Source: Escherichia coli (lineage in GTDB: Bacteria; Pseudomonadota; Gammaproteobacteria; Enterobacterales; Enterobacteriaceae). From it: a DNA stretch of 64,000 bases. The translations under genes and the position numbers were made by a program. The stretch lies in NCBI RefSeq assembly GCF_003334785.1, contig NZ_QOWV01000004.1, one strand, 5' to 3'. Below are positions 52,148 through 55,377 of the stretch, piece by piece; position 1 is the stretch's first letter, and the number at the start of each line of letters is the position of its first letter. The notes below the pieces were generated by a model. It was given only the letters and a program-made list of their open reading frames with translations. It did not search any database and had not been told where the DNA came from.

Positions 52148-52927
52148 ATGGAAATCAGCCTGTTGCAGGCATTTGCGTTGGGCATTATCGCCTTTATCGC
52201 TGGCCTGGATATGTTTAACGGCCTAACCCATATGCACCGCCCGGTGGTCCTCGGCCCGTTGGTCGGGCTGGTACTTGGCGATCTGCATACCGGAATTTTA
52301 ACCGGCGGTACGCTGGAACTGGTGTGGATGGGGCTGGCCCCGCTGGCGGGCGCACAGCCGCCTAACGTGATTATCGGTACTATCGTCGGCACGGCGTTTG
52401 CCATTACTACTGGCGTGAAACCCGATGTCGCAGTAGGTGTCGCCGTACCTTTCGCTGTCGCAGTACAGATGGGGATTACCTTCCTGTTCTCGGTGATGTC
52501 CGGCGTGATGTCTCGCTGCGACCGGATGGCGGAGAACGCCGATACTCGCGGCATTGAACGCGTGAACTATCTGGCACTGCTGGCACTCGGCATTTTCTAT
52601 TTTCTCTGCGCTTTCCTGCCTATCTACTTCGGCGCGGAACATGCAAAAACCATCATTGATGTCCTGCCGCAACGATTAATCGACGGCCTCGGCGTCGCGG
52701 GCGGCATCATGCCAGCAATCGGTTTTGCCGTGCTGCTGAAAATCATGATGAAAAACGTCTACATCCCCTACTTCATCCTGGGCTTTGTTGCCGCCGCCTG
52801 GCTCAAGTTACCAGTGCTGGCTATTGCTGCCGCTGCGCTGGCGATGGCGCTGATCGACTTGCTGCGTAAATCTCCTGAACCGACTCAACCTGCGGCACAG
52901 AAAGAGGAATTTGAAGATGGCATCTAA
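52148..52927 (+). CDS. agaW: PTS EIIC component AgaW, full-length 259 aa
   Basis: Intact ORF; paralogous to AgaC in this window. Confidence 0.85.
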   Translation: MEISLLQAFALGIIAFIAGLDMFNGLTHMHRPVVLGPLVGLVLGDLHTGILTGGTLELVWMGLAPLAGAQPPNVIIGTIVGTAFAITTGVKPDVAVGVAVPFAVAVQMGITFLFSVMSGVMSRCDRMAENADTRGIERVNYLALLALGIFYFLCAFLPIYFGAEHAKTIIDVLPQRLIDGLGVAGGIMPAIGFAVLLKIMMKNVYIPYFILGFVAAAWLKLPVLAIAAAALAMALIDLLRKSPEPTQPAAQKEEFEDGI

Positions 52928-53795
52928 TCAAACCACCCTGCCGAACGTCAGTGAAAACGAAGAAACATTGCTGACTGGCGTCAATGAAAACGTGTATGAA
53001 GATCAGAGCATTGGCGCGGAGCTGACGAAAAAAGATATCAACCGCGTCGCCTGGCGTTCCATGCTGTTACAAGCGTCTTTTAACTACGAACGTATGCAGG
53101 CTTCTGGCTGGTTGTACGGTCTGCTGCCTGCTCTGAAAAAGATCCACACTAATAAACGCGACCTGGCGCGCGCCATGAAGGGGCATATGGGTTTCTTCAA
53201 TACCCATCCGTTTCTGGTGACGTTTGTTATCGGCATTATCCTTGCGATGGAGCGTTCTAAGCAGGACGTTAACAGTATTCAGAGCACCAAAATTGCCGTC
53301 GGTGCGCCGCTTGGCGGGATTGGCGATGCAATGTTCTGGCTAACGCTACTGCCGATTTGTGGCGGGATTGGAGCCAGTCTGGCATTGCAAGGCTCCATTC
53401 TTGGCGCAGTCGTCTTTATTGTGCTGTTCAACGTGGTACACCTGGGGCTGCGTTTTGGTCTGGCGCATTATGCTTACCGCATGGGCGTGGCGGCGATTCC
53501 ACTGATTAAAGCGAATACCAAAAAAGTCGGCCATGCTGCGTCTATCGTTGGGATGACGGTAATCGGTGCGCTGGTGGCAACCTATGTTCGTTTAAGCACC
53601 ACGCTGGAAATCACGGCGGGCGACGCAGTGGTTAAGTTACAGGCTGATGTTATCGACAAACTGATGCCGGCCTTCTTACCGTTGGTCTACACCCTGACCA
53701 TGTTTTGGTTGGTACGCCGCGGCTGGAGTCCGCTGCGTCTGATTGCAGTTACCGTGGTTCTCGGCATCGTCGGTAAATTCTGCCATTTCCTTTAA
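52918..53795 (+). CDS. agaE: PTS EIID component AgaE, about 292 aa
   Basis: ATG at 52918 with GAGGAA Shine-Dalgarno, overlapping agaW by 10 nt; the track start is a TTG at 52911; paralogous to AgaD. Confidence 0.85.
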
Positions 53796-53812
53796 ATACA
53801 ATGAGGTATTAG

Positions 53813-54247
53813 ATGTTAAGTATTATTTTGACAGGGCATGGCGGGTTTGCCAGCGGCATGGAAAAAGCAATGAAGCAAATTCTCGGTGAGCAATCGCAGT
53901 TTATCGCCATCGATTTTCCGGAAACCTCAAGCACCGCGCTGCTTACATCGCAGCTTGAAGAGGCCATCGCCCAACTGGATTGTGAAGACGGCATTGTTTT
54001 TCTGACGGATTTGCTGGGCGGCACGCCGTTTCGCGTAGCTTCAACGCTGGCGATGCAAAAACCGGGCTGTGAAGTGATCACCGGCACCAATTTGCAACTG
54101 CTACTGGAGATGGTGCTGGAGCGCGAAGGGTTAAGCGGTGAAGAATTCCGTGTACAGGCGCTGGAGTGTGGACACCGAGGGCTGACCAGTCTGGTGGACG
54201 AGTTAGGCCGCTGCCATGAAGAATGTCCGGTCGAGGAAGGAATATGA
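53813..54247 (+). CDS. agaF: PTS EIIA component AgaF, 144 aa
   Basis: MLSIILTGHGGFASG (active-site His region). Confidence 0.85.
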   Translation: MLSIILTGHGGFASGMEKAMKQILGEQSQFIAIDFPETSSTALLTSQLEEAIAQLDCEDGIVFLTDLLGGTPFRVASTLAMQKPGCEVITGTNLQLLLEMVLEREGLSGEEFRVQALECGHRGLTSLVDELGRCHEECPVEEGI

Positions 54248-55377
54248 CACACGTTCTGCGCGCCAGAAGGCTGCTGACTGAAGAGGGATGGCTCGATGAC
54301 CATCAGTTGCGTATTGCTGACGGTGTCATCGCAGCAATCGAACCGATTCCAGCGGGCGTGACTGAACGCGATGCGGAACTGCTCTGCCCTGCTTACATCG
54401 ACACCCATGTACACGGTGGTGCGGGCGTTGATGTAATGGATGACGCGCCGGATGTACTCGACAAGCTGGCAATGCACAAGGCACGCGAAGGTGTCGGCAG
54501 TTGGTTACCGACCACCGTAACCACGCCGCTTAATACCATTCATGCGGCGCTGAAACGTATTGCTCAACGTTGCCAACGCGGCGGACCTGGTGCGCAAGTG
54601 CTGGGGAGTTATCTCGAAGGACCGTACTTCACGCCGCAGAATAAAGGCGCGCATCCGCCGGAGTTGTTTCGCGAGCTTGAAATTGCCGAGCTGGATCAGT
54701 TGATTGCCGTTTCTCAGCACACCTTACGTGTGGTAGCGCTGGCACCGGAAAAAGAAGGGGCATTGCAGGCCATCCGCCATCTTAAACAGCAAAACGTAAG
54801 GGTGATGCTGGGGCATAGCGCGGCGACCTGGCAACAAACCCGCGCCGCATTTGATGCTGGTGCCGACGGCCTGGTGCATTGCTATAACGGGATGACAGGT
54901 TTACATCACCGCGAACCGGGAATGGTTGGCGCGGGATTAACGGACAAGCGCGCCTGGCTGGAACTGATAGCCGATGGTCATCATGTGCATCCGGCGGCAA
55001 TGTCGCTGTGTTGTTGCTGTGCGAAAGAGAGAATCGTACTGATCACCGACGCGATGCAGGCAGCTGGGATGCCGGATGGTCGCTATACGTTATGTGGTGA
55101 AGAAGTGCAGATGCACGGTGGCGTTGTCCGTACCGCGTCTGGTGGGCTGGCGGGCAGTACGCTGTCTGTTGATGCGGCAGTGCGCAATATGGTCGAGTTG
55201 ACGGGCGTAACGCCTGCGGAAGCCATCCATATGGCGTCGCTGCATCCGGCGCGAATGCTGGGTGTTGATGGTGTTCTGGGATCGCTTAAACCGGGCAAAC
55301 GCGCCAGCGTCGTTGCGCTGGATAGCGGGCTACATGTGCAACAAATCTGGATTCAGGGTCAATTAGCTTCGTTTTGA
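54244..55377 (+). CDS. agaA: N-acetylgalactosamine-6-phosphate deacetylase AgaA, full-length 377 aa
   Basis: ATG overlaps the agaF stop (ATGA); metal-binding HxH motif (DTHVHGG) present in the N-terminal part. Confidence 0.85.
   Translation: MTHVLRARRLLTEEGWLDDHQLRIADGVIAAIEPIPAGVTERDAELLCPAYIDTHVHGGAGVDVMDDAPDVLDKLAMHKAREGVGSWLPTTVTTPLNTIHAALKRIAQRCQRGGPGAQVLGSYLEGPYFTPQNKGAHPPELFRELEIAELDQLIAVSQHTLRVVALAPEKEGALQAIRHLKQQNVRVMLGHSAATWQQTRAAFDAGADGLVHCYNGMTGLHHREPGMVGAGLTDKRAWLELIADGHHVHPAAMSLCCCCAKERIVLITDAMQAAGMPDGRYTLCGEEVQMHGGVVRTASGGLAGSTLSVDAAVRNMVELTGVTPAEAIHMASLHPARMLGVDGVLGSLKPGKRASVVALDSGLHVQQIWIQGQLASF

Follow-up and report, generated by a model that had tools for sequence, protein, structure and literature searches.

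The aga/gam cluster

The 64,000-nucleotide stretch of Escherichia coli DNA analysed here (the window) contains the aga/gam cluster for use of N-acetylgalactosamine (GalNAc) and galactosamine (GalN) at positions 49303–60777. All 13 genes of the cluster, from agaR to agaI, are open and full-length. They are arranged as agaR / kbaZ-agaVWEFA / agaS-kbaY-agaBCDI and are flanked by yhaV and yraH. The region very probably represents the ancestral, intact 13-gene aga/gam regulon in a natural, phylogroup A-like strain that is near K-12 but is not K-12 itself.

Genes were called from a six-frame list of open reading frames (ORFs) and by direct translation. The RefSeq annotation of AST198, a complete genome identical to the window over positions 50000–57500, gives the same boundaries and names. 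The cluster encodes two sets of phosphotransferase system (PTS) subunits, one for GalNAc and one for GalN, and its genes are as follows:

49303–50112, minus strand: agaR (ORF; AST198 RefSeq annotation), same protein as in K-12 and E. coli C
50361–51641, plus strand: kbaZ (agaZ), tagatose-bisphosphate aldolase subunit, 426 residues, GTG start; same protein accession as in K-12
51664–52137, plus strand: agaV, GalNAc PTS subunit IIB, 157 residues; NF008508 equivalog
52148–52927, plus strand: agaW, GalNAc PTS subunit IIC, 259 residues, ATG start; NF040757 equivalog; K-12 retains nucleotides 1–376 only
52917–53795, plus strand: agaE, GalNAc PTS subunit IID, 292 residues, ATG start; NF040760 equivalog; absent from K-12
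53813–54247, plus strand: agaF, PTS subunit IIA common to the GalNAc and GalN transporters, 144 residues, ATG start; NF040761; absent from K-12
54244–55377, plus strand: agaA, GalNAc-6-phosphate deacetylase, 377 residues, ATG start; TIGR00221; K-12 retains nucleotide 586 onward only
55728–56882, plus strand: agaS, GalN-6-phosphate deaminase/isomerase, 384 residues; TIGR02815 (agaS_fam), 635 bits; same protein accession as in K-12
56895–57755, plus strand: kbaY (agaY), tagatose-1,6-bisphosphate aldolase, 286 residues; no difference from E. coli C in the protein
57922–58398, plus strand: agaB, GalN PTS subunit IIB (ORF and AST198 annotation)
58437–59240, plus strand: agaC, GalN PTS subunit IIC (ORF and AST198 annotation)
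59230–60021, plus strand: agaD, GalN PTS subunit IID (ORF and AST198 annotation)
60022–60777, plus strand: agaI, 251 residues, intact (AST198 annotation)

The functional role given for AgaS is taken from PMC3668189, according to which agaI is not needed for GalNAc or GalN use. Each of the 13 translations ends in a single stop, with no frameshift or premature stop, and is as long as its counterpart in E. coli C (ATCC 8739), which served to define the two-transporter pathway (PMC3668189). The proteins differ from those of E. coli C by 0–4 residues each, and AgaR, AgaF, KbaY and AgaC are identical.

A reading of the window made beforehand from the sequence alone (the sequence-only reading) had described agaW, agaE, agaF and agaA as full-length genes with overlapping junctions. 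The lengths and coordinates of all four were confirmed, each with a single terminal stop. The overlaps were found at two of the three junctions, agaW/agaE (11 nucleotides) and agaF/agaA (4 nucleotides, ATGA), but not between agaE and agaF, which are separated by a 17-nucleotide spacer; the spacer between agaV and agaW is 10 nucleotides long. A Shine-Dalgarno-like GAGG motif is located upstream of all four starts. Alternative starts are present for agaE (TTG at 52911, giving a 294-residue ORF) and agaA (ATG at 54223, giving a 384-residue ORF).

The known inactivating point mutations of the cluster are absent. Codon 8 of agaC and codon 72 of agaI are both CAG, in contrast to the amber codons at these positions in O157:H7, and residue 91 of AgaF is a glycine.

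Protein families of the transporter and the deacetylase

The four GalNAc PTS subunits match NCBIfam equivalog models end to end and well above their cut-offs, namely NF008508 for AgaV (316 bits, cut-off 180), NF040757 for AgaW (410 bits, cut-off 300), NF040760 for AgaE (618 bits, cut-off 500, positions 1–292 of 292) and NF040761 for AgaF (219 bits, cut-off 130). AgaF was assigned on the basis of NF040761, since its match to the EIIA-man model TIGR00824 (positions 1–111, 90.4 bits) is below the cut-off of 98.35. Its N-terminus, MLSIILTGHGG, contains His9, the N-terminal histidine of IIA proteins. In AgaV, the His15 motif RLIHGQV is kept in alignment with the solved IIB structures 3eye, 8yri, 3p3v and 1vsq.

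The cluster thus displays the features of a mannose-family PTS enzyme II, with separate IIA, IIB, IIC and IID proteins, the phosphohistidine motif RLIHGQ in IIB and the N-terminal histidine in IIA. The same four-component architecture is found in the mannose (ManXYZ), sorbose and levan-fructose systems, and the TIGR subfamily models match the aga cluster as well. When aligned with the solved IIB domains of ManX, SorB and LevE, AgaV shows the active-site histidine motif kept. In contrast to these systems, the IIA of the aga cluster is a separate protein that serves two IIBCD sets. The GalNAc/GalN specificity of the aga PTS is taken from the literature.

AgaA matches the nagA equivalog TIGR00221 with 290 bits (cut-off 225.65) and aligns over its full length with the solved NagA structures 2vhl and 7nut. 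The metal-binding and catalytic motifs HxH (HVHGG), LEGP, GHS, H-YN and ITDAM are all kept, as is characteristic of the NagA/AgaA amidohydrolases (N-acetylhexosamine-6-phosphate deacetylases).

Comparison with the clusters of E. coli C and O157:H7

In the content, order, orientation and overlaps of its 13 genes, the cluster does not differ from the aga/gam regulons described for E. coli C (ATCC 8739) and for O157:H7 EDL933 (Brinkkotter et al. 2000, as cited in PMC3668189; Hu et al. 2013, PMC3668189). Compared with E. coli C, AgaV of the window carries the substitution I56S (see below), and agaA together with the agaA–agaS spacer (54244–55620) is the most diverged part; agaA contains 27 nucleotide differences, and positions 55481–55555 form a patch rich in indels. 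Where K-12 has kept part of 54244–55620, the window hardly differs from it. The pattern of differences points to an old patch of recombination, arisen in one lineage, at agaA and the adjoining spacer.

End-points and consequences of the K-12 deletion

The window was aligned with the K-12 genomes MG1655 (NC_000913.3) and DH1Ec104 using blastn with base-by-base extension. According to the sequence-only reading, a deletion of about 2.3 kb in K-12 truncates agaW and agaA and removes agaE and agaF, and an alignment with MG1655 had been proposed as the check. The alignment bears this out. MG1655 is not co-linear with the window, and both K-12 genomes align in two blocks, of which the first ends at window position 52523 and the second resumes at 54819, with a 10-base overlap in K-12. 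The resulting gap of 2,305 bp cuts agaW after nucleotide 376 and agaA before nucleotide 586, and agaE and agaF are wholly lost. The features at the gap are:

52514–52523, plus strand: left direct-repeat copy, CGCTGCGACC, at the K-12 deletion end-point
52524–54828 (equivalently 52518–54822, given the repeat at both ends), no strand: 2,305 bp absent from K-12 (MG1655 and DH1Ec104 alignments)
54819–54828, plus strand: right direct-repeat copy, CGCGGCGACC, at the K-12 deletion end-point

The flanks of the gap are 99.96% identical between the window and the K-12 aga locus, where the remnants agaW' and 'agaA are the pseudogenes b3134 and b3135. At the K-12 junction, TGTCTCGCTGCGACC is followed directly by TGGCAAC, so that nucleotide 376 of agaW is joined to nucleotide 586 of agaA. 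The agaW' reading frame runs into 'agaA out of frame, and the fusion product consists of MEIS...MSRCD and then the residues LATNPRRI, after which it ends at a stop. The two halves of this junction lie 2,305 bp apart in the window, which therefore does not carry the K-12-type delta(agaW'-'agaA) allele. The 2.3-kb K-12 deletion and its Aga−/Gam− phenotype have been published previously (PMC3668189, PMC9628945, PMC2808357).

The two repeat copies share a perfect 6-bp core, GCGACC, and match at 9 of 10 bases overall. Since perfect microhomology of at least 6 bp is expected at a random junction with a chance of only about 0.0013, the K-12 junction looks like a short-repeat deletion, produced by slippage or illegitimate recombination. 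The literature attributes the K-12 aga deletion to 'site-specific recombination'; at the deletion ends no longer homology or recombinase-type site was evident besides this short repeat. A more far-reaching proposal, which we consider rather unlikely as a whole, is that the deletion was a very recent, lineage-private slippage event mediated by microhomology and not site-specific recombination, and that, separately, AgaV I56S tunes GalNAc uptake. The recent, lineage-private origin would follow from the lineage of the window having diverged from K-12 by only ~0.03–0.05% and yet having an intact locus; in the same proposal, I56S might be a functional polymorphism in ST10-like strains.

Predicted pathway and the AgaV I56S allele

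The genes present, their intactness, the exact end-points of the deletion, the population frequencies and the difference from K-12 were established directly, and the biochemical roles and mechanism are taken from work on E. coli C and O157:H7 (PMC3668189, PMC9628945). In the pathway predicted on this basis, AgaR would repress both operons. GalNAc would be imported and phosphorylated by the mannose-family PTS AgaV (IIB)–AgaW (IIC)–AgaE (IID), and GalN would be imported via AgaBCD, with the single IIA protein AgaF giving phosphate to both transporters. GalNAc-6-phosphate would then be deacetylated by AgaA (or NagA), and GalN-6-phosphate would be converted to tagatose-6-phosphate through deamination and isomerization by AgaS and then phosphorylated. 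Finally, KbaY/KbaZ would cleave tagatose-1,6-bisphosphate into dihydroxyacetone phosphate and glyceraldehyde-3-phosphate. The K-12 form is derived, one 2,305-bp deletion between the short direct repeats within agaW and agaA having removed the C-terminal half of IIC, all of IID and IIA, and the N-terminal half of AgaA. K-12 is both Aga− and Gam− because the shared IIA, AgaF, is lost. With 13 of 13 cluster genes intact, the complete two-transporter GalNAc/GalN pathway that the sequence-only reading had proposed stands at the gene level, and the source strain is inferred from the sequence to grow on both GalNAc and GalN.

Several points weigh against reading the region as the working regulon of a natural strain other than K-12. 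AgaV has a serine at position 56 (single-nucleotide polymorphism (SNP) at window position 51830), which is an isoleucine in K-12 and E. coli C and F, I, I or V in the four solved IIB homologues, and the serine may reduce GalNAc transport. Single substitutions can suffice to abolish the phenotype, as reportedly happened in an outbreak strain of O157:H7 through a substitution in AgaF. Moreover, the designation 'non-K-12' strictly applies to the 64-kb region only.

The first of these points underlies an alternative in which the cluster is intact and the phenotype is impaired, for example because I56S weakens the GalNAc IIB, so that the strain would be Aga− or slow on GalNAc and still Gam+. The replaced residue is hydrophobic in all of the proteins compared above, and in the part of the cluster that MG1655 also has, I56S is the sole non-synonymous change relative to it. 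On the other hand, the catalytic His15 motif of AgaV is intact, the remaining genes are also intact with no signs of decay, and the exact Ser56 protein is found on at least 1,000 contigs. Being so widespread, Ser56 is a common allele in nature that is probably tolerated, and we regard an impaired phenotype as improbable.

Relationship of the window to K-12

Independently of the aga segment, the window can be distinguished from K-12 by SNPs relative to MG1655 and DH1, by the copy number of a repeat at rnpB and by its identity to natural isolates, so that the non-K-12 background proposed from the sequence alone is upheld. There are 6 SNPs in 18.25 kb between the window and MG1655, and approximately 34 SNPs in 61.7 kb, scattered across the 64 kb, between the window and K-12 DH1. 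For comparison, CY34, the one K-12-type genome set against DH1 here, is separated from it by 1 base in 20.3 kb (see below). A 113-bp tandem repeat located directly 3' of rnpB (41663–42039, minus strand) is present in 2.5 copies at 41406–41685, and DH1 has one unit more. Natural isolates that match 24.5 kb of the window at 100% identity include UMNF18 (porcine), P13-6 (O141:H4, pig) and GDSC2BY4G (vegetable). Judged by its sequence, the window is thus a close relative of K-12, with a divergence of ~0.03–0.05% in this region, and is not K-12.

Two further observations were made in these comparisons. The 113-bp repeat unit opens with a terminator-like hairpin, AAACCCGCCGAAGCGGGTTTTT. At window position 47349, within garD, DH1Ec104 differs from the window and MG1655 does not; this difference appears to be a private SNP of DH1 and not a K-12 marker.

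The close relationship also allows for a K-12 derivative that regained the aga region from an Aga+ donor, whether through transduction or through engineering. The flanks have diverged from K-12 by only ~0.04–0.05%, and fragments transduced by phage P1, which are about 90–100 kb long, could span the whole 64-kb window. Nevertheless, the SNPs extend across the entire 64 kb and are accompanied by the repeat-copy difference at rnpB, the identical 24.5 kb recur in several natural isolates that are unrelated to one another and come from pigs, vegetables and humans, and neither a scar nor a marker was found near the aga cluster in the ORF list or the AST198 annotation. A K-12 transductant is therefore considered extremely improbable, and a natural strain close to K-12 is the preferred source.

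Distribution of the intact and deleted forms

The 7.5 kb at window positions 50000–57500 are present in one piece in 4,933 of 5,426 complete E. coli genomes (91%), with 96.7–100% identity. The intact carriers come from lineages that are far apart, among them O157:H7, O104:H4, ST131, O111 and the B-derived C41(DE3). In contrast, only 371 of the 5,426 genomes (6.8%) match, without a break, a 300-bp probe that spans the K-12 junction. The five junction carriers listed out of the 371 are ER1709, JM83, AML003_ev01, DCM200-113 and CY34, all of which look like K-12 strains, judged by name or genome size; of these, CY34 alone was compared with K-12. CY34, which carries the K-12 junction and is labelled as a human urine isolate, was considered as a natural relative that carries the deletion. 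This was rejected, since only 1 base in 20.3 kb separates it from DH1 and its genome is of K-12 size, which makes it effectively K-12.

These genome counts and the spread across lineages indicate that the intact form is the ancestral norm of the species, and that the K-12 form is a derived allele, which appears to be confined to K-12-type genomes among those listed. The reverse polarity, in which the 2.3 kb would be an insertion gained by strains other than K-12, accounts for the bare presence/absence difference only and was rejected on ORF structure and distribution. With the segment, two ORFs are complete of which K-12 has only truncated forms, fused out of frame. The segment is without mobile-element features and is shared at high identity by most genomes across distant lineages, and the K-12 junction was found in the small set described above only. 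The intact state therefore marks the sequence only as 'not K-12'.

Neighbouring features and scans

A scan of the whole window at Rfam gathering thresholds detected rnpB and two naRNA4 copies only, with none in the aga cluster, and no tandem repeats were found in the cluster. Between positions 49000 and 61200, 9 promoter-like sites were predicted, fewer than the mean of 12.6 in shuffled sequences, and 25 terminator-like sites, above the shuffled mean of 14.0 (standard deviation 3.7), none of which gave a convincing signal within the segment.

The prlF-yhaV type II toxin-antitoxin pair (48449–49248) is located directly upstream of agaR, and its proteins are identical to those of K-12. Further away, 2.8 copies of a 100-bp repeat that contains repetitive extragenic palindromic (REP) sequences lie between ygjK and fadH (2810–3094), and two of these copies are minus-strand matches to the Rfam family naRNA4 (RF02564). 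In the genomes TW01221, CFSAN061761 and H7, window positions 39500–64000 are matched at 100% identity in two pieces that are ~9 kb further apart than in the window. The additional ~9 kb encode a flagellin of the FliC/FljB family as well as a tyrosine recombinase, and this island is absent from the window.

Implications

An intact aga/gam cluster is the default condition of E. coli, described since 2000, and is noticeable only against the atypical K-12 reference. The finding itself is already known and has little import beyond strain typing, and the exact end-points (2,305 bp, GCGACC) and the population counts are confirmations and not discoveries. The intact segment sets the sequence apart from K-12, and the strain from which the window was derived is predicted to be Aga+ Gam+, able to use GalNAc and GalN, amino sugars derived from mucin.

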